A DNA stretch of 64,000 bases. Origin: Rickettsiales bacterium. GTDB lineage: Bacteria; Pseudomonadota; Alphaproteobacteria; Rickettsiales; BLZN01. Positions 8,284 to 40,634 of this stretch are shown piece after piece; position 1 is the stretch's first letter; the number at the start of each line of letters is the position of its first letter. A program made the position numbers and the translations under genes. The notes beneath the pieces were generated by a model that was given only the letters and a program-made list of their open reading frames with translations, was not told where the DNA came from and searched no databases. The stretch covers positions 35,623 through 99,622 of the forward strand of contig BLZN01000104.1 of NCBI GenBank assembly GCA_014132315.1, given 5' to 3'.

Positions 8284-8604
8284 TTATTTAGAATAAAATA
8301 TAAATTCAGTTTGCAAATCCTCAGTGGTTCCGTGCCATAGCCCCAAGATAAAAGCATATGCCGCATAATTTGAGAGAAGAATAGAAGATAATATAAATCT
8401 TATCAAATCTATAAAACGCAAAACAATATTAATGAATAAAAATGAAGCTAAACAAATAGATAATAAGAAGAGCAATTTAGGTAAAATACTAGCAATAATG
8501 CATATATATAAAGCAAAAGAGCGGGCTATATCTAAGGTCTTCAAGGTGCTAGCCATAAATCCATGGTGTCGGCATATGATGTTTTCCCACCAAGAGCTCA
8601 GCAA
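8284..8604 (-). pseudogene. possible relic of a polytopic membrane-protein gene
   Basis: The 106-aa ORF is very hydrophobic. A further hydrophobic fragment (MFIPYVGMLIYYCLASGVIFIKLLSI*) sits just upstream on the same strand near 8640-8720. There is no intact long ORF in the 8073-9020 gap. Confidence 0.3.
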
Positions 8605-9020: not shown

Positions 9021-10004
9021 TTAGCGCTCCGCAGCAAAGGAGCAAAACATTAATTTATCCGAGACATCAGCTATATTAAGCACAGAGAATTGAGCGGCGT
9101 TCGCGACTTTAGCTAGATAAGCCGTAGAATAAGAAAACTTATCTCGATAGGGCATGAATTGCAGATATCCCTGGGCTTTGCTGACAAAAAACACTAGGAT
9201 TCCCTGTGGTCTCAATGCCTCATGACACAAACGCAGAATCCGCTCGGACAGGCCTAGATAGCCAAATGCACCCTTTGAAACAATGATATCATATTGAATC
9301 TTGCGATTTTGCAAAAATTCACCAATCTCAGCCTGGGATAGATTATTATACACCAGCTCACCTTCGATCTTTAGGTTGCCTGCCCGTTTTACCATGCCCG
9401 CAGATATATCCACCCCCTCGAGATAGCAATGGGCGATATACTGTCGCAGAGCTTTGCCCAAAACACCCGGGCCACACCCCAACTCCAGCACACTCAGGGG
9501 CGAATTATTAAAATAAGGCTTGATAGAATTTAGCAAGAGATTTTGCGACTTTTCGTCAAAGACCTCATCCTTTGGATCCGAAAAATCAAACCGCTCCGCA
9601 ACCAAAGTGCTGGGTACAGAGCTTATCGAAGTCGGATCATCGATCTTTTGCAAAAAATATTTACTTTCAGCCAGGCCATCTTTTGCTGCAAGGGATTTCC
9701 GCAGATACTTGGCAGCTTTTCCCTCCCTTCCCAACATGTAATAGCAGCGCCCCAGATTATAATTGGTCCTGGCAGCACTGGACCTGAACCAAGAAAGCAG
9801 AACAAATCTCATCGCTGCATCGTTAAAATGACCACCATAATAGTGATGCAAACCCAGATTCATATTGGTCTCTGGTAGATTTTTGGCCTTTTGAGCAGCC
9901 TCTTTGAGAAAAACTAAAGACTTGCTCCATGTGTTTTTGAGAAAATCCCCAAAGTCCACGAAAGAACCAGAAATATTCCTTGCTTTTCTTTTAAGAAACA
10001 TCAC
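9021..10004 (-). CDS. TPR-repeat / class I SAM-dependent methyltransferase fusion protein
   Basis: N-terminal TPR-like helices (NLGLHHYYGGHFNDAAMRF...NYNLGRCYYMLGREGKAAKYLRKSL). C-terminal SAM-binding motif I VLELGCGPGVLG. Confidence 0.7.
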   Translation of the reverse strand: MMFLKRKARNISGSFVDFGDFLKNTWSKSLVFLKEAAQKAKNLPETNMNLGLHHYYGGHFNDAAMRFVLLSWFRSSAARTNYNLGRCYYMLGREGKAAKYLRKSLAAKDGLAESKYFLQKIDDPTSISSVPSTLVAERFDFSDPKDEVFDEKSQNLLLNSIKPYFNNSPLSVLELGCGPGVLGKALRQYIAHCYLEGVDISAGMVKRAGNLKIEGELVYNNLSQAEIGEFLQNRKIQYDIIVSKGAFGYLGLSERILRLCHEALRPQGILVFFVSKAQGYLQFMPYRDKFSYSTAYLAKVANAAQFSVLNIADVSDKLMFCSFAAER

Positions 10005-10080
10005 GGTTATTTATAAGTACTAAACATATAAAGCACTAAAACATAGTGCCATAAAGCTAATAAAACGTTAAGACAGACCT

Positions 10081-10710
10081 TCATTCAGATTTGAACATAT
10101 TTTCCACAAAATCCCACAAGCCCTGCTGCCTGGTGCGCCGTGCGCGCTCAGCATGCAGAATGCTGAGTACGCTGTCTAAGGTCTCATCTATGTTATTATT
10201 AACAATTACATAATCGTATCCATACCAGTGGCTGATCTCGTGCTTTGCTCTGCGCATTCTCTCGTCTATAACCTCCTGACTATCAAGCCCCCTTGTCAAA
10301 AGACGCTCCCTGAGCGCAGCTAAAGAAGGCGGCAGCATAAAAACACTCACAACGTCGCTCCTGGCATTCTGAATCAGCTGTATATTGCCCTGCCAGTCAA
10401 TATCGAGCAGAATATCCCTGCCATTCTCCAGTTTTTGCTCCACAGAAGCCCTCAAAGTGCCATAATAATTGCCAAAAACTTTCGCATGCTCAAGAAATTC
10501 ATTGTTAGATCTGCTTTGCTTAAACTCCTCAGGCGTCATAAAAAAATAGTCTTTGCCGTGGATCTCCCCATCACGAGGAGGACGCGTGGTTGCAGAAACA
10601 GAAACCACGATGCCGCTATCTTGCTGCATCAGCAGCTTCGAGACAGTGGTCTTGCCAGCTCCAGAGGGAGAAGACAAAACTAAAATAAAGCCTCTACGTC
10701 TATTATCCAT
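10081..10710 (-). CDS. gmk: guanylate kinase
   Basis: P-loop SSPSGAGKTT and TTRPPRDGE..G.DYFF, typical of Gmk. Confidence 0.92.
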   Translation of the reverse strand: MDNRRRGFILVLSSPSGAGKTTVSKLLMQQDSGIVVSVSATTRPPRDGEIHGKDYFFMTPEEFKQSRSNNEFLEHAKVFGNYYGTLRASVEQKLENGRDILLDIDWQGNIQLIQNARSDVVSVFMLPPSLAALRERLLTRGLDSQEVIDERMRRAKHEISHWYGYDYVIVNNNIDETLDSVLSILHAERARRTRQQGLWDFVENMFKSE

Positions 10711-10999
10711 CCTGCTAAAACACTACCATTTTTGATAATAATAAGTCATAAATTATAAATAGCTAAATAAAAATATAAACCGCTTCTGATCTGCAGGCAA
10801 ATATAATAAATCCTATCATAAATCATAAAAATCCGTCTAGGAAATCAGCGTAGCCTGATTTAAAAAACATCAATAAGGCTTATTGCTGCAAATCTTCTTT
10901 TATCCTCTGGAAGCATCATGCATAAAGCAGATAAAATAGCATCAGGACTATTAATAAGAACTGCATAGCTTGCACAAAAGCACCCTAAAGGACCCATAA

Positions 11000-12001
11000 C
11001 TAAAGAGCCTCGTCAAACACGCCGCTATTGGTTGAATATTCAAAATTTAATATATTATCCGGGTGCACCAGGCTATAGATGCTGCGGCAGGCCATCGCAG
11101 CTTCTGCAAAGGCACTCAATATCAATTTTAGCTTACCTGGGTAAGTAACCACATCGCCTATAGCATAGATTCCAGGTGTGCTGGTAACGAGAGTTTCCGG
11201 GCTAACCTTGATGCGTTTGCGCTCGATGTCAAGCCCCCAGCCGGCAATAGGACCCAGATCCATCGATAAACCAAAAAAAGGCAACAAAATATCCGCTTCT
11301 ATCTCTTTCATAGATCCGGCAAGGCTCCTCAGAATGACCTTATTTATCATTCCACCGCTGCCCGAGATATCATGCAGATGATAAGGCGTGACGATTTCCA
11401 ACGAGCCTACATCGGCCATTTGCCTGAGTTTTAGCGTACTACTCGCAGTGCAACGAAATTTATCGCGCCTGTGCACCAGATAAACGTTTTTGGCCACCCC
11501 GGCAAGAGCAATAGCCCAGTCTGCAGCAGAATCGCCACCGCCGGCAATCACTACCTTTTTGCCGGCAAAATCTTCTGGTCTGTGCACCAGATAAAAAACT
11601 GTTTTGCCCTCATATTGCTCTATTCCTTCTATCCTCGGCCTGTTAGGCCCAAAAGCACCGCAGCCGGCAGCTATTATGATCGCCTTAGCTTCAATAATAT
11701 TACCCACAGAAGTGACCAGCTGCCACTGGCTGGCTCTGCCACTGATTTTTTCCACCCTCTGACCAAGATGATAAATCGGAGCGAATCTCCCCGCTTGGGT
11801 TTTTAAGTTCGTTATTAGATCCTTTGCTAAAATAGCAGGACATGCAGGAATATCATAAATAGGCTTCTCGGGATAAAGTGCAATGCATTGACCGCCTATA
11901 AAATCCAGTGCATCAATTATACAGCTGCTCAGGCCCAGGCGCCCAGCCTCAAAAGCAGCAAATAAGCCCGCAGGCCCAGCACCTATAATTGCGATATCCA
12001 T
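11000..12001 (-). CDS. thioredoxin-reductase-type ferredoxin--NADP+ reductase
   Basis: FAD motif IIGAGPAGLFAA, then GGQCIALYPEKPIYDIP (typical of YumC-type FNR) and an NADPH motif IAGGGDSAADWA. The likely true start is the internal ATG at 12001 (MDIAIIGAGPAG); the track ORF extends to 12145. Confidence 0.8.
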   Translation of the reverse strand: MDIAIIGAGPAGLFAAFEAGRLGLSSCIIDALDFIGGQCIALYPEKPIYDIPACPAILAKDLITNLKTQAGRFAPIYHLGQRVEKISGRASQWQLVTSVGNIIEAKAIIIAAGCGAFGPNRPRIEGIEQYEGKTVFYLVHRPEDFAGKKVVIAGGGDSAADWAIALAGVAKNVYLVHRRDKFRCTASSTLKLRQMADVGSLEIVTPYHLHDISGSGGMINKVILRSLAGSMKEIEADILLPFFGLSMDLGPIAGWGLDIERKRIKVSPETLVTSTPGIYAIGDVVTYPGKLKLILSAFAEAAMACRSIYSLVHPDNILNFEYSTNSGVFDEAL

Positions 12002-12338
12002 AATCCGTATGCAGATGTTTAAAAAATAACCTAGTATGACTAGTATACAGCAGAAAGCCCAGGATGCAAAAACTGGACAGGCATTGCAGCTGCCAACATA
12101 TCCCGCAAAGAGATAAAGAAGGTAAGATTTAAGATAAAACTGCAATAATGCTAGTGAAAATAATCATTGCGGATCATTTCTAGTTTAGACAAAATTGCTT
12201 AAAGCATTCTCATTTCAACCAAAAAATAATTTTAAGTAAAATAACCTAAAAAGATATATTTATTATACTATTAACCTATAATATATCTAGAACTTAAGTC
12301 AGCTACTATACTTTCATTTTTCATTGCTCCTTTTTGGG

Positions 12339-12644
12339 TTATAGGTAGTAATTATCAAATTCTACAACGAATACCATAGTATTTGGTGTTTCGTTGTATT
12401 CAGTAACAATTGCCGTGAACTTGTACGGAAGATCATTATCTACAGCATGCATTAAATCATCAGCAATCATCTCATAGGTAGTGGTATTCCTGTAACTTGC
12501 AGTACTATTTTGATGATATCCATCAGCATCGAATGATCTGAAATATCCAGTTCTCATATCATTATACCTACTATCGTAATATAATGAGTTAGGTTCGCCC
12601 ATGTCCCATTTAATAGTAAATCTATCATTAGTCATATTAGTCAT
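12339..12644 (-). CDS. small acidic Tyr/Asn/Thr-rich orphan protein (101 aa)
   Basis: Isolated ORF in an AT-rich spacer. Upstream carries the same TTAATATAATATT motif found before the small ORFs at 20.7-21.2 kb. Starts MTNMTN, like the MTDM and MTSK starts of the other small ORFs. Confidence 0.45.
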   Translation of the reverse strand: MTNMTNDRFTIKWDMGEPNSLYYDSRYNDMRTGYFRSFDADGYHQNSTASYRNTTTYEMIADDLMHAVDNDLPYKFTAIVTEYNETPNTMVFVVEFDNYYL

Positions 12645-12669
12645 TGTTCGTCTCTTTTCTTATTTTGTT

Positions 12670-12682
12670 AATATTATATTAA
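12670..12682 (-). promoter_or_regulatory. TTAATATAATATT promoter-like motif (contains a TATAAT -10) upstream of the 101-aa ORF
   Basis: The minus strand reads GTTAATATAATATTAAC, with TATAAT 28 nt before the ATG. The same 13-mer core occurs at 20980-20992 and 21138-21150. Confidence 0.4.
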
Positions 12683-12793
12683 CATAAATTGGTCAAGATG
12701 TTAAGGGATTATTTAAAATATTTTTTCCTATATATTCTTGCTGTGAAGCAAGAGACTCGAGTTCTCTGGTATGCTTGTAGTAATCTTCACCTT

Positions 12794-13097
12794 TTAGTCT
12801 ACGAGTATTAATAGAAAATCAGAAGCTGAAAGCAATATCCACTCAAATAAGCAAGAGAAGCAGCTGTGCAGAGGAATAACAAGGGCTATTAGTATATGCA
12901 ATGCACGAAGGAGAGGTAATTTTAATGCTATTATATATAGCAATATTAAAATTATAGATAATGAACATAGAATCTTGTGCATATGCACAGCCTATAACAT
13001 ATGCAAACGCACTGTCTTTATTTGCAAATAATGCTAGTCTAAAGGAAATTCCGGAAGACACAGCCCAATAAAAACTAAAAATCCTCCAGAGATGCAA
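12794..13097 (-). pseudogene. frameshifted relic of a membrane-protein gene
   Basis: Two overlapping hydrophobic ORFs (64 and 84 aa) lie in different frames on the same strand. No intact gene occupies the 12645-13519 gap. Confidence 0.3.
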
Positions 13098-13519
13098 AAT
13101 ATTCCTTATATTCCACCATCAATCAGCAGCAAAACTCAACAAGAAACTATTACAGGTTGCCATGAGAAAAGAGCAACGAGGGATTTGCTATTAAAACTAC
13201 AAACAAGGTGCCGGTCAAGAATGAATATGGGTCTATACTGCCATTTCTCATAAGCCCTGGCTATCTAACATGCTCAAAGCGGACAAACAAGATTGCCCAA
13301 GAAGAACGCAAAGCATGCAATATAAGGCACGGAGCAACTCGCTGTGCTTTGAGTCAGATCGCTTCTGGGCAGAGCAGGCCTGGTTCTGGGCAAAATCTCT
13401 AATTGTACATAACTAATTGCGCACATAAACTCAGAATAATTGCAATAAACCTGCCAAAACATTGCGATAAGGCTATATTAGTTATTATAATGAGTTCGCA
13501 CGTCATCAGTCCTTAACTA

Positions 13520-14534: not shown

Positions 14535-14849
14535 ATGGAAAAAAATATAGTGGAAGATACACTAAAAAATATAAGAAGGATGATAAACAGCAAGGAACAG
14601 GAACAAGTTGCACATTTGCTTCCTCATTTGTCAACTTACACCCGCACAGATGTTCTGCTGCTAACTGAGGCAATAGAAGAAAATCAAGATATCAATGAAG
14701 TTTTTATAGCTAGGGAAGCTAAGCAAGCGGAAAATTTAGGTGCATTGAAAGCAGAATTTTCTGAATGGCTAGACCAAAACCTCCCCTCATTAATCAGAAA
14801 AACAATAAGACAGGAAATAGGCAAGGCGCTCAAAAAAATGCTGCCTTGA
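14535..14849 (+). CDS. popZ: miniature PopZ-like (DUF2497) protein
   Basis: Three PopZ signatures are present: N-terminal EDTLKNIRRMI (cf. Caulobacter MEEILASIRRII), a central VLLLTE motif, and C-terminal EWLDQNLPSLIRKTIRQEI (cf. KEWLDQNLPRIVE). Confidence 0.65.
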   Translation: MEKNIVEDTLKNIRRMINSKEQEQVAHLLPHLSTYTRTDVLLLTEAIEENQDINEVFIAREAKQAENLGALKAEFSEWLDQNLPSLIRKTIRQEIGKALKKMLP

Positions 14850-16730
14850 GGCATAATCCATGAATGCAAATAGCGTCTGGTTTCGGTGAATCTTGCAATT
14901 TTTTGGCCAAATTTGTCCAAGCTGTGTACGTAATCATAACAGTAGCTGAAATAGATTTGCGGCCAAGAATGGCGCGTAGGGCACAACAAAGAGTGGCAAA
15001 TGCATCAATAAAGCCTAGTATATGCCCTGGGATTTCTAGGGCCCTTTTTTATTGCTCAATTATTGTTCACAAATCCATAAAAGATGTCGCCCCTCGTGAG
15101 CAAAGATAATGCAGAGGGAATTATACTTCTTCTGATATTGAGCATAACCCTATTATGCACAATGCTCTTGAACATGCACAAAAGCGACCTTCATCCACAA
15201 AAAAGCAAGATAAATCAGCCCATATATCTCAACATGTATGTAGATACATGGGGCCATAAACAGTCCCGAGATGCAGGTACATATCCGCAAACCATCCGTA
15301 ATAATTGAGTCTATGAAAATGCAAATTTGCAGAATGGACACACAAACTCACCATTATTTATAATGTATTATTAGAAACCCGGAGCCTTTGCGAAAGACTA
15401 GGAGAAATGGCAATGCGCAAACGGGAGAGGAAAAATACTCCGGACTATTTTACCAAAGAGGACTGATATTTATGGCGATGACAGCAGAAAAAAATCAATA
15501 AAGACAGGGCATTAGAAGCCTCAAAGGTTGATCTAAAAAATTAATTTTGTGCCCATACTGCCCAAGAGCTATGCCCTAGAAATATAACAATTAAGTTAAG
15601 ATAGCGCTCGACGCAACCAAAATTTAAAGATAGAAAACATGAAGAGCCATAAAGAGGAAATATAAGGGGCATATAATCTTAAATATAATAGCAAGGTCGA
15701 GCCCCGCATAAAGAACATCTTTTATATGGTTTGCCGGCCGGAGCAGCGCCATATCTATGCATATAGCGCAGCAAACGCGCGCATAAAAGCAATGAGGCTC
15801 GACAATCTGTGTTTTTATTTTGATTCTAGCCTACAAACCTTCAAAGCAGAAGGCATCAAGGGCAACATATAAGCAAGCGGGACAAAGAAGCATCGACACA
15901 ATAATTAAAATTAGTAAGGTCCATACAACGCTGCAAAAAATATGTAAACTAAGAACACAGAGGCCATGGGGGCACATCCAGTGCATATAATGAATATTTT
16001 GTTGGACTCCTGGCAAAAATTACGAATGGCAAAAATATGATGCGATCTTGATGAAAATAATACAAAGCTCTGCATGCACAACCCAGGATAATGCCTATAT
16101 ACATAAAAAAGCAACAAAGGGAATTCAAGAGGGGATGGACAGAAGGAAGCGGAGGATAAGCCACATGAAAGCCGCATGTGCAGAGCCCTGATGGGCAGAT
16201 TATCCAAGACGCACCCCTAAATATGAAATGGTCCACCTATCAAGAACATTATCAGAGGAGATATTATGAGATTACGCCGGAGAGGTCGGATTATTAATCT
16301 GGAGTTGGGGCGACAGATGCGGCGCAGGCTGATTCAAGAGTTGAGAAGTAATCTTATTTACTAAAATATTAATTAGTAATATATCTATTAGGCTTAAAAT
16401 TATTATATATTTTGTATATTAATTATGTATATAATATATGCTATGCAATAGAAACAAAAGGCTATAAGGTAAATTAATGATAATGCCGCCACAAAATTTA
16501 GGAATGAAAAATGAGCGGAAGAATCCTGCATTCAAGCTGAGCGAAATTAAAGCAAAACAGAGGCAAGATATCCGCACAAAGCGAGAGCCAAAGGGATCAC
16601 AAAGAGCCAATAATGAGAGGCACGCATGAATCATGCTCATATTCAGGGCCAGGAAGCCTTAAAAGCAAAGAGTCGACATCTGTGCTTTGCGCTAAAATAA
16701 CAGATTAAGTATACACTAGTAGAATTACAG

Positions 16731-16760
16731 TATAGCTATGACTTAAAAGTCATAGCTATA
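16731..16760. repeat. perfect 13-bp inverted repeat with a 4-nt loop, immediately 3' of the capsid gene
   Basis: tatagctatgact-taaa-agtcatagctata. It lies 14 nt downstream of the capsid stop on the minus strand. There is no U-tract, so it is not a canonical intrinsic terminator. Confidence 0.6.
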
Positions 16761-16773
16761 CAAAACCGAAATT

Positions 16774-17997
16774 TTAGGCAGAAAGCTGCAATAACCTTAG
16801 CGCCTCACCGCACACTACCGCACCACCAACTCTTTTTGTAATGTAAAAGGTAACCATAGGCTTAGATGTATAAGGATCCCGCAAGACGCTCACACCAGAT
16901 CTGTCAACAATCATATATCCCCGTTTAAAATCACCCAAAACAACCGAGAGCGAATTAGTTGCAGGAGCCATCATATCAGCAGCCTGATAAACCGGGAGAC
17001 CAAGTATAGTGTCAGTAGTGCCCATAGTCATGTTAGGCTGCCATATATAAGTGTTACTGGTAGGGTGCTTAAGTGTTCTTATAAGTTGCGTAGTGGCACG
17101 ATTCATTAAAAATGCAGCACCGGATATATAATCTTCTTTGAGATCGTAGTACATCTTGATGAGATTATCAACGGTAATGCTGCCATTGGTGCCAGATTTT
17201 ATCCTTTTGATATAATCAGAAGATCTGGAATTAGTACGAGTTAAGATGCCTTCGGGTTTCAGCGCTCCATCTCCTTTGATGAATCCCTCGCTTTCCTTTG
17301 CTGCAAATGCCTGCCCAACCTTCTTAATCAGCCATTCCTCAACATCAACAGATGCATCATCTAGCAGCTGCTGTGTTATCTTAGGATTAGCATAAAGTTC
17401 ATTTACTGTGATAGTCTTACGATTAATCCTAGGAGTGTTAGTATTTCCGCTGATTACGACATCAGTGGCGCCAGACCAGTCAACCGTAGGACTAGTATAA
17501 TCTTCGAGCACCTCCAAAGATGCGGTAGAAATATTCTGCACTGTTGCCAGCTGCCTTATGGGAGAACCTTCCAAAGCCGCCTTGCTCATCTCTTCTGCAG
17601 CAGCAGGATCAACGAAATAACCCCCATCCGCATCCCTCTCATTAGAGAGAGTCTTGGTTTGCAATCTGCGCAACGGCCCTTCTGTACCACTACGCAAATA
17701 TGAGCGAAAAGCACTCTTATATTCTGCCATATCTTCATCAAGCACATGATAATCACTGTCAGACGGGCCAAATCCTGGTCTTTGCATGGAAAGCTCAATC
17801 TTTCTAACCCTTTCCTTGCATTTATCAATGTTATCATTTATCCTTTTTAATTGGGTAATGGTTAGTGTGTCTGCAGAGCCTCTTTCTCCAATTTCACGCA
17901 ATCTCCTTTCGTTCACTTGCTTAAATTGCTCCCATGCAGAGCATAATTCATTCACTTTGCGTGTAGCATCAGGTATAGACATAATATATCCCTCCAT
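16774..17997 (-). CDS. HK97-family phage major capsid protein
   Basis: 407 aa. Coiled-coil N-terminal delta-domain-like region followed by an HK97-fold-like body (...GGYFVDP..., ...FLMNRATTQLIRTLK..., ...LGLPVY...). Sits directly after the prohead protease. Confidence 0.85.
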   Translation of the reverse strand: MEGYIMSIPDATRKVNELCSAWEQFKQVNERRLREIGERGSADTLTITQLKRINDNIDKCKERVRKIELSMQRPGFGPSDSDYHVLDEDMAEYKSAFRSYLRSGTEGPLRRLQTKTLSNERDADGGYFVDPAAAEEMSKAALEGSPIRQLATVQNISTASLEVLEDYTSPTVDWSGATDVVISGNTNTPRINRKTITVNELYANPKITQQLLDDASVDVEEWLIKKVGQAFAAKESEGFIKGDGALKPEGILTRTNSRSSDYIKRIKSGTNGSITVDNLIKMYYDLKEDYISGAAFLMNRATTQLIRTLKHPTSNTYIWQPNMTMGTTDTILGLPVYQAADMMAPATNSLSVVLGDFKRGYMIVDRSGVSVLRDPYTSKPMVTFYITKRVGGAVVCGEALRLLQLSA

Positions 17998-18035
17998 ATT
18001 ATAATTTATATTAAGCTTTTAGAAATGTACTAAAA

Positions 18036-18590
18036 TTAGCTAGCCAGTATCCTTAGAGCTCTATCTATAGCTCCAAATAAATCTGGATCATTGTTTATCC
18101 CTCCAGATTCATGCTTGACCTGAGTCACGCGCGCTTTTTCATTCGCAGGATTAACAGCCAAACTTATTTCAAAGACATAGCCTGTGGCAACATGGGTAAT
18201 GCCAGTTTCCGGGTCTATATAGTACCTAAGGGGAGCCCAGCCAATAGACACGCCGTTAAATACACCCTCTTTCATCATCTCATAAACCTCACGTGCACGC
18301 TGCACATCAAGGCAAAGCTGCGCCTCAAAATACAATCCTTTTTTATCTTCTTTGGCATCTAGTATTTTGCCTATCGGCTCCCGGGCTATGTGACTCCAAA
18401 GTAGAGTTATGCGGTCAGGGTCCAGATACTCAAAAGCACCTGGATACGTGATATCATTATGCAAATCCAAGTAATTAAAAACACTTGCATACCCAACAAT
18501 CTTGCCAGTTTCCTCAACTGACTTTATCCCCAAGATAGGCTCGGTTTTAAAAGTTTGGAAATTATGAGAAGCTCGTGCAACTGCCGCCAT
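18036..18590 (-). CDS. HK97-family prohead serine protease (S78)
   Basis: 184 aa. GYASVFN..D.HNDITYPGAF, LLWSH....PIG (His) and GVSIGW (Ser) match the S78 signature. Confidence 0.85.
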   Translation of the reverse strand: MAAVARASHNFQTFKTEPILGIKSVEETGKIVGYASVFNYLDLHNDITYPGAFEYLDPDRITLLWSHIAREPIGKILDAKEDKKGLYFEAQLCLDVQRAREVYEMMKEGVFNGVSIGWAPLRYYIDPETGITHVATGYVFEISLAVNPANEKARVTQVKHESGGINNDPDLFGAIDRALRILAS

Positions 18591-18677
18591 ATTACCCCCT
18601 AAAAGTATTTAATTGGTTAAATATTAAATATCTTTTGTTGCTATAAAATTTAAAATTTTAAGATTTATTGCAGAATG

Positions 18678-19205
18678 CTATTCGTTGTAGTATAAGGCGG
18701 TAACTGGATCTGCATACATTAGAGGAACAGCACTTATACTAACCCCCATGATCCACAGTGTACTATAAACTTTTATTCCTTCCTCTACACTGCGCTCTTG
18801 GTCTATTATGCTCTTAGCCTCCATATAGTAAACTGAAGAGTTCATAGACACTCCAAACCTCAGCATCGCATAAATCTCTCTAGCCTTCTGCACCTTCAAG
18901 ATAAGCTTAGCTTTATAATACAGACCTTTTTCGGGATCTTCATAGAGACTCAGTACTTTGCCTATCGGTTCTGCCTGATTAATATTCCACACAACCGTGT
19001 GGTCAACGAAATCTATATTCTTAAAAGCACCAGGCAATGCTCTACCACCGGCACCGGGAGTGCCAAAGGGCAGAGAATTAAGGGGACCATCATAACCGGC
19101 TGCATAGCCATAAATTATGCCATCACCTTCCACTCCACTGGACTCAAACCCCGCGACGTTATCATTTCTCACTATTTCAAGAGAATTAGAACTGATTCTT
19201 CTCAT
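18678..19205 (-). CDS. prohead-protease paralog lacking the catalytic His (probable pseudo-protease)
   Basis: 175 aa, alignable to the neighbouring protease (GYAAGY...LPGAF...VVWNINQAEPIGKVL..EDPEKGLYYKAKL..VQKAREIY). The SH of LLWSH is replaced by NI, and the N-terminal region carries a Gly-rich insertion. Confidence 0.7.
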   Translation of the reverse strand: MRRISSNSLEIVRNDNVAGFESSGVEGDGIIYGYAAGYDGPLNSLPFGTPGAGGRALPGAFKNIDFVDHTVVWNINQAEPIGKVLSLYEDPEKGLYYKAKLILKVQKAREIYAMLRFGVSMNSSVYYMEAKSIIDQERSVEEGIKVYSTLWIMGVSISAVPLMYADPVTALYYNE

Positions 19206-19254
19206 AATTACTCCTCATAAAACAAGTCAAAAATAGTTCGCAAATCTAGCATAC

Positions 19255-20481
19255 TCACTCAAGCTCATCTCCCCCAGCCACAGGACCAAGACCCACTGCT
19301 TCTCTTTTTTCATTTGTGGTCATAAAATCTGCAACTCTCACTCTATCCCATACCTTATCCTGCTTTGCACTAATTGCGCCTATTGAATCTATGTCATAGG
19401 CCAGCCTTAAATTATCGGCAAAAACACAGGAGATGGAATTATTCATACCTTCAATTATCTTATCCAAAAGAGGCAAAACAGTTTGCTCCCATAGGGCTAG
19501 GCGAGCTTCAATTAGATTACTGTAGGTATTGTCTCCCGGTATGCCCAGAAGCTGTGGAGGCACCCCAAAAGCAAGCGCAATATCGCGTGCAGCGCTATAT
19601 TTGACATTTACGTAATCCATGTCCTTAGGGTTTATGCTCATCTCTTTCCAGTCCAGTCCACCCTCAAGCAACATCGGTCTGCCTGCATTTCCGCTGCCCA
19701 TATATAATTCTTCTATTTGCTTCTTGATGCGCTGATATTGATCTTCGGCCAAAATTCCGCCACTCCCATCCGTAGCAGGCTTGACCACCAGAGCTCCGCT
19801 AGGTCTAGCGCCATTTTGCAGCAAGGCCTGGTTCCAGGCGGCAGCCTGATTATGCTGATCTATGCTATAGGCCGCAGCTTCAACTGGAGAAAGACCGTAG
19901 CGGTCATCAGTGGGATGAAAAGTTTTTAAGTGCAGGATATCGGATTTTCCACTAAATTTATTAACCCGAAAATTCTTGACCTTATCACCTACCTTATATT
20001 CATAACTCATCAGGCCTTTTTCAGTAGCTACAATCTTGATGCGATCAGGTCTTAGCAGATATAATTCTTCGGGATATTGTCTGGAGCTAGAATAGGCCTT
20101 AACTACATATGCATTGCCGCTGATCAACAAATATTCAATAATATTTTCAATAAAATCCACCCCAGACATAAAAGGATTGGGCTTCTGCAGCAAATTTAGC
20201 AAAGGGTGAGTGTTTAGCTCCGCCTGATTCTCAGCATTATATAGCTTAATGGAGACAGAGGACGCTGCAGCCGCTATCATGTTAATACATCTGTGGACTA
20301 TAACATTTTTAATGTAGCCCTCTCTGGCAAACTGCACATAACCCCTACCGGTCCATGCCGGATCACCCATGGAATAAACAAAAGATCTCTGCGCAAAAAG
20401 ATCGTGTCTCAAGTTAGAGCCATTAATACTTTTTGTATGTTTATTGCGTAGTCTTTTTGTTAACTTCTTTACAATACTCAT
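19255..20481 (-). CDS. HK97-family phage portal protein
   Basis: 408 aa. Size, position upstream of protease and capsid, and portal-like conserved stretches (...GNAY..., ...YGLSPVEAA..., ...LAFGVPPQLLG...). Confidence 0.85.
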   Translation of the reverse strand: MSIVKKLTKRLRNKHTKSINGSNLRHDLFAQRSFVYSMGDPAWTGRGYVQFAREGYIKNVIVHRCINMIAAAASSVSIKLYNAENQAELNTHPLLNLLQKPNPFMSGVDFIENIIEYLLISGNAYVVKAYSSSRQYPEELYLLRPDRIKIVATEKGLMSYEYKVGDKVKNFRVNKFSGKSDILHLKTFHPTDDRYGLSPVEAAAYSIDQHNQAAAWNQALLQNGARPSGALVVKPATDGSGGILAEDQYQRIKKQIEELYMGSGNAGRPMLLEGGLDWKEMSINPKDMDYVNVKYSAARDIALAFGVPPQLLGIPGDNTYSNLIEARLALWEQTVLPLLDKIIEGMNNSISCVFADNLRLAYDIDSIGAISAKQDKVWDRVRVADFMTTNEKREAVGLGPVAGGDELE

Positions 20482-20739
20482 ATGCCTCTGATTCCATCTA
20501 TTAGAAAATTAAAGCCACAACAAGCTTATAATTGCATTATAAATGCCGCGCGAAAGTGGCGGAAGCAAATATTTAGCAATCCTAAGCTTATAGATTATTG
20601 CAAGCTTACAAAGATGAGAAAAAGAGGCTCTACTTATAAAGTAGTCTGTCTTAAGTAGAAAAACATAGGTAATTACAAAAGACTATCTTAAATAAATCTC
20701 TTAATAATCGCCCTATCCCTCTGCTGTATAATGACATCC

Positions 20740-20961
20740 CTACACGTCATAATTGCTATAATGATCATATTCATCGTAAGTAGTATACACCACTGGCTGA
20801 TATTCCACATAATAGGGCGTATTATAAGGATATCCGTATTCTACAAATACAACTTCCTGTTGATAATGTTGGGAAACATAGTAATAACCCAGTCCAAAGG
20901 CGGCTCCAACCGCGAGGCCAAATAATATTTCTAAAGCAAGCATACCAACAACAAAACACAT
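20740..20961 (-). CDS. 73-aa membrane-anchored Tyr-rich acidic mini-protein
   Basis: N-terminal TM-like segment (FVVGMLALEILFGLAVGAAFGLG), then a tail with 15 Tyr. SD AAGGA and a TATAAT-containing promoter-like motif lie upstream. Confidence 0.55.
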   Translation of the reverse strand: MCFVVGMLALEILFGLAVGAAFGLGYYYVSQHYQQEVVFVEYGYPYNTPYYVEYQPVVYTTYDEYDHYSNYDV

Positions 20962-20979
20962 AAACTTTCCTTATAAATA

Positions 20980-20992
20980 AATATTATATCAA
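20980..20992 (-). promoter_or_regulatory. TTGATATAATATT promoter-like motif for the 73-aa ORF
   Basis: The minus strand reads GTATAATATCTTGATATAATATTTATTTATAAGGAAAGTTTATG. About 48 nt of this leader are duplicated at 21119-21163. Confidence 0.45.
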
Positions 20993-21034
20993 GATATTAT
21001 ACATAATAGATCGTATCATAAACATATACGTATT

Positions 21035-21118
21035 CTACTTGAGGGGGGGCGTGTATGTAAGTTCGTGAACTACTAGGCCGGCAGCGACCGTATATAAAAA
21101 AGGTATCAAAAAAGGCAT
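21035..21118 (-). pseudogene. truncated or frameshifted tandem paralog of the 73-aa Tyr-rich gene (27 codons as read)
   Basis: Same leader, a perfect AGGAGG SD, and a hydrophobic N-terminus (MPFLIPFLYTVAAGLVV). The frame terminates just after a C7 tract. One extra C would give ...PPPQVEYVYVYDTIYYV* (40 aa, Tyr-rich like its neighbour). Confidence 0.45.
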
Positions 21119-21137
21119 AAATTCCTCCTATAAATAA

Positions 21138-21150
21138 AATATTATATTAA
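21138..21150 (-). promoter_or_regulatory. TTAATATAATATT promoter-like motif for the 27-codon ORF
   Basis: The minus strand reads GTATAATATCTTAATATAATATTTTATTTATAGGAGGAATTTATG. Confidence 0.45.
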
Positions 21151-21220
21151 GATATTATACAATAATGTCCAAAAACTAAAGTTTGTTAAATTGTTATTTA
21201 TGACAAAAAGTACATATTAA

Positions 21221-21439
21221 CTATAATACTAAAGGCATAGAATCAGTTATCCAGACCCAACCAGCAAAAGGATCCCAAGCCAAAGTTTGACAATAATAGT
21301 TGGTTACGCAATAATAGTTGGTTTCACATAGATATGTTCCAAAAAACCAATAACAGTCTTGAACTGGGTAACAATCTTCATATGCAACTACTCTGTCGCA
21401 AGTAGGGACATAGTAATCAACTACTATCATATCAGTCAT
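21221..21439 (-). CDS. 72-aa Cys/Tyr/Trp-rich orphan peptide
   Basis: Perfect SD (AGGAGG, 5-nt spacer). Six Cys with spacing C-x8-C-x5-C-x8-C-x5-C-x5-C. Internal TNYYC duplication encoded by an 18-nt tandem repeat (21291-21326). Confidence 0.5.
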   Translation of the reverse strand: MTDMIVVDYYVPTCDRVVAYEDCYPVQDCYWFFGTYLCETNYYCVTNYYCQTLAWDPFAGWVWITDSMPLVL

Positions 21440-21593
21440 ATCATCCTCCTAAAAAGTTAAATCATTATTAATTATAAACACAAAAATATATCTAATTTCA
21501 AGTACTTTAAATAAAAAAATTGCTTTTTTTAAAAGATTAATGCAATGGGCTTATCCATTCCGGATATCCATTCTAATTATAGCAATATATTCA

Positions 21594-21863
21594 TTATCCC
21601 AAAAAAGAGTCATAATCAAGGACATCACGGTCATATACATTAAACAGGCCTTGAGTAGCTATATTATCTCCTGCCAATGTACCAGTCAAATCAACACTAC
21701 TAGGTAGCCACCAAGGTTTATAAGAATAGCCCTCACTAACTACAGCACTATCATACCAATATTCTTGTCGGACATGTATTATGCCAGGCTCATAAGTATA
21801 TATAAATTTTGCATAATCAGCAACAGATTCAGATCCACAACCAGTAATAGCTTTAGATGTCAT
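21594..21863 (-). CDS. 89-aa aromatic-rich acidic orphan protein
   Basis: Isolated ORF in an AT-rich spacer, co-oriented with the other small ORFs. Composition is rich in Y, W and D. SD-like AGGT upstream. Confidence 0.4.
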   Translation of the reverse strand: MTSKAITGCGSESVADYAKFIYTYEPGIIHVRQEYWYDSAVVSEGYSYKPWWLPSSVDLTGTLAGDNIATQGLFNVYDRDVLDYDSFLG

Positions 21864-21950
21864 ACTTACCTAATTAATAATATGTTCATTTTTGATATTA
21901 ACATAAAATGTTAATATATCGCAATATAATTAATATAAATTTTTATGATA

Positions 21951-25426: not shown

Positions 25427-26551
25427 ATGGCACCACCAAATCATCCACCTAAGACCAATGAGGTAAAAGGGCAACAAAGCAAAGTCGGAGGAGATTCTGA
25501 ACCCGGAGAGCAGCCTGTCAAGCTGCCGTTTAGTGCAGAAGAATTGCAAAAAGCCAAGAAAACTCTAAAACACGTAGAAATCATAAAGCAGAAGGAGGAA
25601 AGGCCGAATCAAGATACCGAGCGAGCTGAAGGGTTTAGGCCTAAAATAGCACCAAAGCCAAGATACCTTAAACGCAATTCTCCTCCAGAGAAGCGCGGAG
25701 AACAGGTTCAGGAAAGTGACCCTTTTAATATTTTAGACATCAAGCCCACAGTTTTCAGATCAGTAGCATACTTAAGCCCAATCGTAGATTTGGAAGGAGC
25801 GCAGGCGAAATACACAAATAAAAGAAAAGAAAAGAACGACAGTGCCAAGTTGCTTAAAAAGAAAAAAGAAGAGCTGCGCGGTACAAGATGGTTTAAAATA
25901 TTCAAGCGAATAAAGTTAAGCATAGAAATAAGGCAAAGAAAGAAAGAATATGAAGCAGCAAAAAACGCAAGTTCCTCAGCAGCTCGTGAACTCCAATGTG
26001 CCCTAGGAAATACAGCAGATGCGCAAGATTTTATTCCAATAAAATTGGATGAATTAGAAAAATTCTTAGAACAAGACAATGAAATCGCACAAGAAATCTC
26101 GAATTTTTGTGCGGAGCGCGATCTCAAGATAGAAACATTTGTACCAAATGAGCGTAGTATTCAAACAGCACATCAAAATATTAAATGCTTAGATATAAAA
26201 GCCATTTTATATCACGTATTATTAGAAGACACTGCTGCCACTACTGACAGCAAGAGGATGAGATGCATTAGAATAGTTGAAAAATGCATTGAGGAAATCG
26301 AAAAATGTCCAACATTTGATCGGGAAGAACACGAGCCTATATATTTTCAGAAAGAGGAAATAAAAAGACTAAGAGGAAATGTACTTAATCTTCAGGAGCT
26401 TAAAAGCCTCGTCGGAGATTTCAAACAATCTCTCGAAGAGAAAATGGAAAGAGAATTAAAGGAGGAGCACAAAAAAGACAAGGTGCAAGGCCAAGAAGAC
26501 AGCAAAACGCCACCAAAAACTGAAAGCAGAAGCGCATCATTAGGCCGCTAG
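25427..26551 (+). CDS. orphan Lys/Glu-rich protein with a Pro-rich N-terminus (candidate secreted effector)
   Basis: 374 aa with no recognisable catalytic motif. The N-terminus is Pro-rich and contains a WH2-like LPFSAEELQKAKKTLKHV stretch; the rest is predicted helical and charged. Confidence 0.55.
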   Translation: MAPPNHPPKTNEVKGQQSKVGGDSEPGEQPVKLPFSAEELQKAKKTLKHVEIIKQKEERPNQDTERAEGFRPKIAPKPRYLKRNSPPEKRGEQVQESDPFNILDIKPTVFRSVAYLSPIVDLEGAQAKYTNKRKEKNDSAKLLKKKKEELRGTRWFKIFKRIKLSIEIRQRKKEYEAAKNASSSAARELQCALGNTADAQDFIPIKLDELEKFLEQDNEIAQEISNFCAERDLKIETFVPNERSIQTAHQNIKCLDIKAILYHVLLEDTAATTDSKRMRCIRIVEKCIEEIEKCPTFDREEHEPIYFQKEEIKRLRGNVLNLQELKSLVGDFKQSLEEKMERELKEEHKKDKVQGQEDSKTPPKTESRSASLGR

Positions 26552-38776: not shown

Positions 38777-40634
38777 ATCAAAGATATTATGCCACAATGA
38801 AGGAAAAATAATAAGTTGCACATCAGGCATAAAAGGGGCAATAATTTATGTTCAGAATGCTTTAAAATCTAGCTTACTATCTAATTATATCGACTAGATA
38901 AATTAATCCTGATCATTATAGTTAATAAATAAATTCTATACCAGAAATACCTAGCCCCGGATTTGCTGCAACTCGGCCAGACTCATATTAATCACAAAAG
39001 GGATTCTCGAGACAGATTCTGTGGCAATAACGCTGAGTTCTGCCTAGAAATCTGATAACATACCATCAAAAACTATCAAGCTCATCAAAATGCCAGCTTC
39101 CACCAGCAGAATTCAGGTTGTGCAAAACGTCATGATAGAAGCAACCACAGGCAAAATAAGAGGATATCTGAGTAGAGCAAATATTGCTATTCTTCTGAAA
39201 ATTTAGATGGTTCAAGGCCAATCTTCAAGGCAGGATTTGCAATCAGTATATTAGTCTGTAAAGATGCATATTTTCCAGCAATACCTTATTAACAGAAAAA
39301 GAACCGGCGCTTATCCTTCAAGAATGAGCTGCATATAAACTTCAAGTCATCATGCTTTCTTTGGCCGAGACAGCTGAGTTTTGATCCGGAGTGTTATCAC
39401 AGTATATTTTCGATGATATTTTGACCTACAGGCCGACGCATACTGACTAAGACCTAAAAAGGAGGGAAATTTATTGCTAGCTTTTCTCAAGGATATATCA
39501 TAGTTCCTCGCAACAGATCTAACAGATCCATCAAGAGCACATAGATTAGGTCTTTGCCAAAACGCACGAAAAGCCTGCAATACTTAGCATCAGCCAACAA
39601 TAATCTGTTGCTCAGAAATGACATAGCAGTGTAACAAGCAACATTTATGACCATCCCGCAGTACGCAGCAAAAGCACTATAACACGGCTATATAACTGTA
39701 AAGACACAAAAACCTGCTAGAAAATCCCAGAGAAGAACAAAGCTGGCTTATAAGAAAAAATTATTATTTATTGCCCGAAGCCACAAAAACCGGGAGAAAA
39801 AATTAACCTCCGATCTCACAAAAAAATGTCAATTCAGCCTCCGCATAAACCCAAATAATGTAGGTACGCCTTATTTATCATCCTTATTTATAATATAATT
39901 AAAGAAGATCATGGCAGCATAGACATGCCTAGGCAGATATTATTGACATGGTAACGAAGGCAGGTTGGTGTATATTCTTATCACTAAAGAGACCGAAATC
40001 TGCCACAGTGCTTGGATTCTGAAAAATAACGACAATATCAGAGAATAGAATTAAGCAAGCCTAGGGTTGGAAAATAAGGGTTTGGAAGGCTTAATTTTTA
40101 GCTAAATAAGCAATAGCAATCAGATAAAAGAAGGTACGGGCTGTGGATTACACCCAACCCTGAAAAAATACCACCAGGAAATAACAGCCGGATATGACAA
40201 TATAGCACCATGATTTCATGTAATTTGGGATATTTGCTAACGAAATGATATCGATCTTTGCCGATTATCTTTGCTTTAATAAGCAGGCAGCAAAAAACTC
40301 AGATTAAAGCAAGCTCCAATACCCTGCAATGGAATTCAGGGCTCTGCAGTGCCAATCAGAGAAGGATTGATAATTAGGCATTATCGATTCCTGAAAAGGA
40401 TTAAGCAAAACAAAGTTAGGACCAATACCCGAGCAAACTGGCAATCTATTGAACAATTTATCCTAAACGGCAAAGGCTACAAATGCAAATCTATTATCTA
40501 TAGCGCAGAGCAATTCCCAGAGAGCTGAAATACTAGAAGCAAAGCTGGATAAAGAGCAAGCAAAGTAACATTAAGATGCTAGGAATATTCCCTGAGTTGC
40601 TGCAAGATTTATAAGGATTTATAACACAAAACAT

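Follow-up and report, generated by a model that had tools for sequence, protein, structure and literature searches.

A head-gene module of gene transfer agent type with a putatively inactive protease paralogue in a Rickettsiales genome from a coral

Reduced clusters of gene transfer agent (GTA) genes are known from earlier reports (Lang & Beatty 2007 and Christensen & Serbus 2020, as cited in PMC9254644). George et al. 2022 described head and portal GTA genes that are kept without tails in Rickettsiales and Holosporaceae, outside intact prophages (PMC9254644). The ratio of nonsynonymous to synonymous substitution rates (dN/dS) of their head domains ranges from 0.04 to 0.60, terminases are often present as singletons elsewhere in the genome, and transcripts were detected in related symbionts. 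Both a role in gene transfer and a repurposed one were left open in that study. Here we describe a module of four genes, coding for a portal, two homologues of prohead protease (protA and protB) and a major capsid protein, in a contiguous stretch of 64,000 nucleotides (contig BLZN01000104.1, positions 35,623 to 99,622; hereafter the window, 64 kb) of Rickettsiales bacterium SESOKO1.

SESOKO1 is a single-cell genome obtained from the coral Acropora tenuis. It amounts to 1.08 Mb in 199 contigs, with GC content of 41.3% and completeness of 95%, and the closest RefSeq match of its 16S rRNA is Anaplasma phagocytophilum, with just 86% identity (PMC7686419). The capsid protein encoded in the window is identical to deposited GFZ83659.1, annotated as 'phage capsid protein [Rickettsiales bacterium]' (read set DRR235466), and a gene adjoining the module bears the locus tag RLOatenuis_3840.

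The module resembles the clusters of George et al. in several respects. It is found in the reduced genome of a Rickettsiales symbiont and outside any prophage, it comprises portal, protease and capsid genes without tails, and its dN/dS values (0.12-0.36) are below 1, as are those of the described clusters, where they are likewise lowest for head genes. In the described clusters, GTA genes frequently occupy several separate loci, the terminase standing alone. SESOKO1 differs in being a new host lineage, and the window locus lacks an adaptor gene and carries an extra protease paralogue, predicted to be catalytically dead. The position is also different: Holosporaceae clusters are located downstream of ybgF, whereas the module of the window lies between gltX and holA.

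The GTA of Rhodobacter capsulatus (RcGTA; 6TB9, 6TBA and related structures) shares with the module the order portal, protease, capsid. Its portal has 396 amino acids (aa) compared to 408 here, and its capsid about 386-398 aa compared to 402 here. Contrary to RcGTA, only three of about 17 gene families are present at the window locus, with neither the g2 terminase nor g6-g15, and a protease paralogue is inserted between portal and protease. According to Shakya et al. 2017, large RcGTA-like clusters contain at least nine head-tail genes; with four genes from three families, the window locus belongs to their 'small clusters'. HK97-like temperate phages, for example Azospirillum phage Cd, also possess the cassette of portal, S78 protease and HK97-fold capsid, but terminase, connector, tail and lysogeny genes stand beside their cassette and none of these is present in the window.

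We consider it probable, at roughly 0.8, that the module represents the head-assembly core of an old, domesticated element of GTA type (HK97-like), which is vertically inherited and kept by purifying selection.

The four-gene module and its conservation

The module consists of four consecutive open reading frames (ORFs) on the minus strand, in the order portal, protB, protA, capsid (Table 1). An earlier note on this DNA had reported three of them as intact, namely portal, protease and capsid. Full-length Pfam and NCBIfam matches bear this out, and the three Pfam profiles that the note had proposed for a check (PF04860, PF04586 and PF05065) all found their counterparts. The fourth gene, protB, had been overlooked.

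Table 1. Features of the module and its upstream region, with dN/dS against the sister species
Feature	Position	Strand	Length	dN/dS (95% confidence interval)	Remark
HK97-fold major capsid protein (g5-like)	16774-17997	-	407 aa (ORF)	0.21 (0.15-0.30)	N-terminal scaffolding (delta) region
protA, active-type HK97 prohead serine protease (g4-like)	18036-18590	-	184 aa	0.26 (0.16-0.40)	
protB, prohead protease paralogue without catalytic His/Glu/Asn	18678-19205	-	175 aa	0.36 (0.23-0.56)	between portal and protA
Portal (g3-like)	19255-20481	-	408 aa	0.12 (0.08-0.17)	intact
Conserved non-coding stretch, putative promoter/5' leader of the module	20482-20680	-			assigned from conservation
Small ORF with one transmembrane helix and Tyr-rich tail	20740-20961	-	73 aa		neighbours the module
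Small conserved ORF rich in Cys, Tyr and Trp	21221-21439	-	72 aa	0.25 (0.11-0.60)	upstream of the module; strong AGGAGG Shine-Dalgarno
Seven flanking housekeeping genes, pooled				0.114 (0.097-0.132)	

The portal matches PF04860 (E 1.2e-87, model positions 3-320 of 321) and TIGR01537, portal_HK97 (E 1.3e-68), in both cases end to end. Its best match among solved structures is the RcGTA portal Rcc01684 (E 4.5e-92), the next one following at 3.9e-18. The ATG start is preceded, at a distance of 5 nt, by an AGAGG Shine-Dalgarno sequence. protA matches PF04586, Peptidase_S78 (E 9.7e-25), and TIGR01543 (E 2e-25), and ends with an IDRAxxxL motif that is common to proteases of full GTA-like clusters. 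The capsid protein matches PF05065 (E 4.8e-71) and TIGR01554 (E 1.9e-91), with the RcGTA capsid Rcc01687 as the best solved structure (E 3.1e-59). The deposited capsid begins five codons further in and has 402 aa; this start, at 17982, is the likely one. The shell protein does not look like an encapsulin, as it matches only Phage_capsid PF05065 and has portal and protease encoded alongside.

A sister species, represented by contig L002 of a metagenome in the European Nucleotide Archive, possesses the same four genes at the same chromosomal site. Gene order on this contig is hisS-gltX-small ORFs-portal-protB-protA-capsid, followed further on by DUF2497-holA-trxB-gmk. Identity of the capsids is 80% and that of the portals 86% at the amino acid level. 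We calculated dN/dS between the window and this contig by the Nei-Gojobori method with 1000 bootstraps. Synonymous divergence (dS) is unsaturated, amounting to 0.57-0.92 over the compared genes and 0.60-0.75 for the four genes of the module. dN/dS was below 1 in all 1000 bootstraps for every gene. The portal is the most strongly constrained gene of the module and its ratio equals that of the flanking housekeeping genes. For the scaffolding region of the capsid protein (its N-terminal 105 residues) dN/dS is 0.18. As judged from these comparisons, all four genes are under purifying selection. The whole module is 80% identical between the two species at the DNA level, whereas the tract beside the capsid gene is essentially unalignable. 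GC content of the module (42-44%) and GC content at third codon positions (GC3; 38-41%) are inside the range of host genes.

The earlier note had argued for retention by selection rather than a fresh prophage, and had named two observations that would speak against it: dN/dS near 1, or terminase, tail and integrase genes contiguous with the module. The ratios are far from 1, and no such genes are present within the 64 kb. The module is therefore an old, vertically inherited and selected element and not a fresh or decaying prophage. Host-like GC and GC3 and the lack of attachment-site-like repeats agree with this.

protB is recognizably related to protA (33% identity, E 1e-20) and matches phrog_80, 'head maturation protease' (E 4.7e-9). 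The duplication of the two genes was detected also at the DNA level, as family D1 of a repeat search. To describe the active site, we defined catalytic columns by their near-invariance in 148 diverse S78 proteases, collected by a HMMER search of 1.84 billion representative proteins. These columns hold His in 147, Ser in 148, Glu in 135 and Asn in 126 of the 148 sequences. protA keeps all four residues (His67, Ser115, Glu141 and Asn150). At the same columns, protB of the window has Ile, Ser, Gly and Met, its orthologue in the sister species Met, Ala, Leu and Ala, and a third orthologue, P0243 from marine metagenomes (32% GC), Leu, Ala, Ser and Tyr. The serine is thus retained in the window copy alone among the three lineages. 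protB is also devoid of the C-terminal IDRAxxxL tail. Judging by these residues, protB is an S78 homologue but not an active member of the family, and is predicted to be catalytically dead.

Despite this predicted loss of activity, protB is conserved. Its orthologues share 65% (sister species) and 48% (P0243) identity with the window copy. P0243 is found on short contigs, between the C-terminus of a portal and a protA-like gene with its His kept, so that the order portal-protB-protA is preserved in all three lineages. In a neutral simulation, the 175-codon ORF of protB stayed free of stop codons in just 0.2% of runs. protB is a selected, lineage-specific accessory of the module. Our best guess is either that it pairs with protA or regulates it, or that it is an internal core protein.

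Two attempts to learn more about protB came out negative. A 'g3.5' gene is located between portal and protease of two GTA-like clusters, and identity of protB with it was rejected, since there is no similarity and the g3.5 products are small membrane proteins. A model of protB built by AlphaFold2 from an alignment of three sequences had a mean confidence score (pLDDT) of 45.7 and was unusable. The main text of George et al. 2022 mentions no protease duplication or paralogue (PMC9254644). On limited checks of the literature, the putatively dead protease paralogue is the only element of the module that we did not find described before.

Relatives of the head genes

More than one hundred chromosomal capsids of about 398 aa share 45-53% identity with the capsid of the window, and genomic context is known for three of them. 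The first belongs to a full GTA-like cluster (L004) with homologues of g6-g15; it has adaptor, head-closure, tail-completion, major-tail, DUF2460, BR0599 and peptidase genes and a gene for a 1242-aa GTA_TIM protein. The second, 53% identical, is a lone capsid gene on a contig of 2.1 Mb (L005, positions 10001-11209), located between ftsA and a rhodanese gene; no portal or protease was found within 10 kb of it, and it is a case of extreme scattering of GTA head genes. The third is part of a cluster with terminase in a metagenome-assembled genome of Rickettsiales (L006). In a neighbour-joining tree of capsids, the window and its sister species form a long branch inside the chromosomal clade that includes these three (76% bootstrap) and whose capsids share 48-53% identity with that of the window.

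The earlier note had compared the module to g3-g4-g5 of RcGTA and had proposed a phylogeny against RcGTA and true phages. The gene order and the similar sizes stand, as do the RcGTA proteins as best structural matches, and the capsid does join a clade with a full GTA-like cluster. The identities are less decisive. The capsid of the window is 37% identical to RcGTA g5 (that of the L004 cluster 44%), while it shares 44% identity with Azospirillum phage Cd (over 76% of length), 41% with ctOK67, 40% with a Bradyrhizobium phage and 37% with Pseudomonas phage vB_PaeS-D14E. Because RcGTA g5 is no closer than some true phages, the term 'RcGTA-type' can be applied here only as broadly as the literature on symbionts applies it.

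Two records of phage collections, both named 'Bacteriophage sp.' (MW462191.1, our L013, and MW091529.1, our L017), had to be dismissed as phage relatives, as they are actually RcGTA-like head-tail clusters. One of them is a contig of 103 kb, evidently bacterial, in which genes for a penicillin-binding protein and a LysE transporter flank the cluster. Such records make GTA genes seem more similar to 'phages' in database searches than they are.

Dispersed head and packaging genes are found on other contigs of Rickettsiales and related endosymbionts. Portal and terminase occur there as pairs (L007, L009 and L020), one contig has a portal alone (L011), and another a singleton terminase among housekeeping genes (L023). 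Outside this group, the planctomycete Tundrisphaera lichenicola carries on its 7.4 Mb chromosome genes for portal, protease, capsid and adaptor in one block (L008), the portal being 47% identical to that of the window. The family of head genes is therefore not confined to Alphaproteobacteria.

Surroundings of the module

Outside the module, all ORFs of the window with a Pfam family match are cellular, mainly housekeeping genes. On the left these are ppk, an AsmA-like gene, nadE, an OmpA-family gene, gpsA, gmk, a TrxB-like reductase gene, holA and a DUF2497/PopZ-like gene. To the right of the module, gltX, hisS, an ABC-2 permease gene, shikimate kinase, Smr, dnaB, RNase E/G, uvrB, ndk and tsaB come first. 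The genes for tRNA-Leu, tig, clpP, clpX, lon, a dihydroorotase-like amidohydrolase, folE and fabI are followed by ppx, bamD, rpe, eno, ubiE, fumC and folP. Another eleven ORFs of larger size (101-578 aa) match no Pfam family and have no significant match among PHROGs; their sole PHROG match is a marginal one of unknown function (E 0.0069), for the 106-aa ORF at 8284-8604.

As queries of a tblastn search against the window (E <=10) we used all proteins of the two full clusters introduced above, L004 (portal to g15, including GTA_TIM) and L006 (terminase to tail). Only the portal, both protease copies and the capsid were recovered, the rest being at chance level. In agreement with the earlier note, tblastn, Pfam and PHROGs revealed no terminase, adaptor, tail, lysis, integrase or repressor gene within the 64 kb, and no replication or other regulatory phage gene was found there either. 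A repeat search found no attachment-site-like direct repeats flanking the module.

The earlier note had also correctly placed small ORFs and gltX upstream of the module and a gene-free tract of 1.9 kb downstream of it. The latter, at 14850-16773 next to the capsid gene, contains no ORF longer than 101 aa, and its GC content of 38.8% is near the coding level, in comparison to 31-34% in two of the other long non-coding tracts. It has no Rfam match and no similarity to tail genes, and ORFs of at least 50 aa in 14684-16640 gave no Pfam match. Remnants of tail or terminase genes in the flanking tracts were rejected for these reasons, tblastn similarities being of chance level only. In the sister species, the corresponding slot (L002 11354-12288) is occupied by an F-box-like gene split into parts of 133 aa and 169 aa. 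The slot gives the impression of a place at which effector genes of eukaryote-like type are acquired and later degenerate. A second variable slot is located between the ABC-2 permease and shikimate kinase genes, where the window has a 374-aa ORF without family match on the plus strand (25427-26551) and the sister species an unrelated F-box-like protein of 287 aa (L002 2296-3159). Two further non-coding tracts, 38831-40634 and 12146-13519 (1.4-1.8 kb), lie within an otherwise compact region of housekeeping genes only and fit ongoing decay of pseudogenes in a genome of 1.08 Mb. The TrxB-like flavoprotein next to one of them (11000-12145, minus strand) scores 131 bits, far below the thioredoxin reductase cut-off of 343, and may be a different pyridine-nucleotide disulfide oxidoreductase, for example of the ferredoxin-NADP reductase type.

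Upstream of the portal, between the module and the gltX and hisS genes, small ORFs fill positions 20482-21950. The stretch immediately adjacent to the portal, listed in Table 1 as putative leader, is about 80-84% identical to the sister species across some 200 bp, at a distance where 41-53% of synonymous sites differ; in contrast, no alignment was possible for the tract that follows the capsid gene. A plus-strand ORF within it (20482-20658) was rejected as a gene, since it contains stop codons in the sister species and its substitutions are not enriched at third codon positions.

The next small ORF, of 73 aa, is only weakly similar (36%, E 0.036) to its 72-aa counterpart of the same place and layout in the sister species, and has no Pfam or PHROG family match. 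An AT-rich segment of 36 nt, resembling a promoter with a Shine-Dalgarno sequence, is duplicated in its vicinity (20968-21003 and 21126-21161; 158 bp apart, 83% identity). Each copy stands ahead of a short minus-strand ORF for a membrane peptide, in one case the 73-aa ORF and in the other an ORF of about 27 aa (all within 20740-21170), and the sister species has one copy only. The more distant ORF of 72 aa is a real small gene. Its DNA is 79% identical to the sister species and its dN/dS is low (Table 1), with no family match in Pfam or PHROGs.

Possible functions

How a domesticated head-assembly core might work can be sketched from the biology of HK97 and RcGTA. A portal dodecamer would nucleate the assembly, and the capsid protein would co-assemble by means of its own N-terminal scaffolding region. 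protA would be built into the shell, possibly via its conserved C-terminal tail, and its cleavage of the scaffold would give rise to the mature shell. protB would enter as a selected accessory, in one of the two capacities guessed above. By analogy to the split loci of other Rickettsiales, other parts of the genome could then supply a terminase, and perhaps the products of residual neck or tail genes, to complete the heads; we would put the chance of this at about even. The tight constraint on the portal speaks for a particle to which a packaging motor or a neck still docks, and we therefore rank such a split-locus arrangement above a repurposed shell.

Several observations weigh against a domesticated GTA-type head. 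No terminase of SESOKO1 was present among the best 120 of 6845 profile matches (E <=1e-20), which is not evidence of absence, and no adaptor, stopper or tail gene was found for SESOKO1 in the 64 kb searched. By analogy to tailed phages, a DNA-filled head would not hold its DNA without adaptor or stopper. Transmission electron microscopy of more than 850 endosymbiont cells by George et al. showed no particles (PMC9254644). The capsid alone does not place its clade with RcGTA over phages, given the identities listed above. Finally, Shakya et al. 2017 argued that small clusters outside 'Clade 1' could be of viral origin with no relation to RcGTA, and suspected many of them of being remnants of this kind (PMC5721377). 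The window locus is similar to these small clusters in having fewer than nine RcGTA homologues, in its occurrence in Rickettsiales and in GC content identical to that of the host. It differs from them in flanks conserved between species, in the absence of an integrase and in selection at housekeeping level (for the portal), all of which argue against an unrelated viral remnant, and its nearest capsid clade includes a large cluster with GTA_TIM protein. Three terminase candidates, P0199, P0239 and P0170, were traced to contigs of other samples and do not belong to SESOKO1.

The alternative that survives best is a repurposed tail-less particle. It would transfer no DNA and would act as a nanocompartment, or would carry protein or nucleic acid as part of the interaction with the host, with protB as a new internal or regulatory part. 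Head genes only are present at the locus, and no adaptor stands beside the capsid gene, unlike in the two full clusters; the predicted dead paralogue has been conserved, under selection, across three lineages; and this is one of the roles that George et al. 2022 left open (PMC9254644). The portal speaks for the opposite, being the most constrained gene of the module (dN/dS 0.12). To our knowledge, a portal serves solely as the channel for DNA and as the place where terminase and tail dock, and we know of no capsid-like compartments, such as encapsulins, that possess portal and protease. Packaging of protB is doubtful, as it lacks the C-terminal tail of protA, and the cargo is purely conjectural. 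On balance we regard a repurposed particle as unlikely. A more specific version of it seems improbable to us, and clearly more so than the general one. It supposes that a GTA-derived head gained a dedicated dead paralogue in one marine Rickettsiales clade (SESOKO1, the sister species and a TARA-type lineage), and that this altered how the particle is built or what it contains, so that an agent of DNA transfer became a protein shell without tail that serves the symbiosis. If true, a protein shell with a dead paralogue would be a new kind of domesticated viral compartment.

A functionless remnant of a prophage or GTA, which the shrinking genome would not have deleted so far, would agree with a reduced genome containing non-coding tracts of 1.4-1.9 kb, with the absence of tail, terminase and adaptor genes from the locus, and with the split F-box-like gene beside the module of the sister species. 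This reading is contradicted by the present data. All four ORFs are intact in two species at dS of about 0.6-0.75, confidence intervals of dN/dS exclude 1, the protB frame would rarely stay open under neutrality, a third lineage has the same gene order, and the adjoining tract has diverged past alignment next to a module 80% identical in DNA. We consider decay very improbable and close to excluded.

Weakest of all, at the very edge of exclusion, is a mobile element, either a recent fragment of a prophage or a capsid-forming satellite (of the phage-inducible chromosomal island kind) that would make its own heads and borrow tails of a helper phage: capsid-forming satellites do possess HK97-type portal, protease and capsid genes without tail genes, but the data contradict this reading, as the window contains no integrase, terminase, regulatory or replication genes and no flanking direct repeats, and the module has the composition of its host, the same chromosomal position in a species with just 80% capsid identity, and conservation at the level of housekeeping genes.

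The domesticated head-assembly core proposed here matches a published kind of locus, the reduced head/portal GTA cluster, and fits the current picture without changing it. Since George et al. 2022 described the same pattern and considered the same two hypotheses, the idea itself is not new. What our results provide is a well-supported additional case in which a reduced endosymbiont genome actively keeps a head-assembly machine derived from a virus. It is based on a single-cell genome from a coral symbiont, on a sister species with conserved synteny and on dN/dS free of saturation. Conserved protB offers a small but concrete handle on the purpose of the particle, and may show how the particle was modified after domestication.

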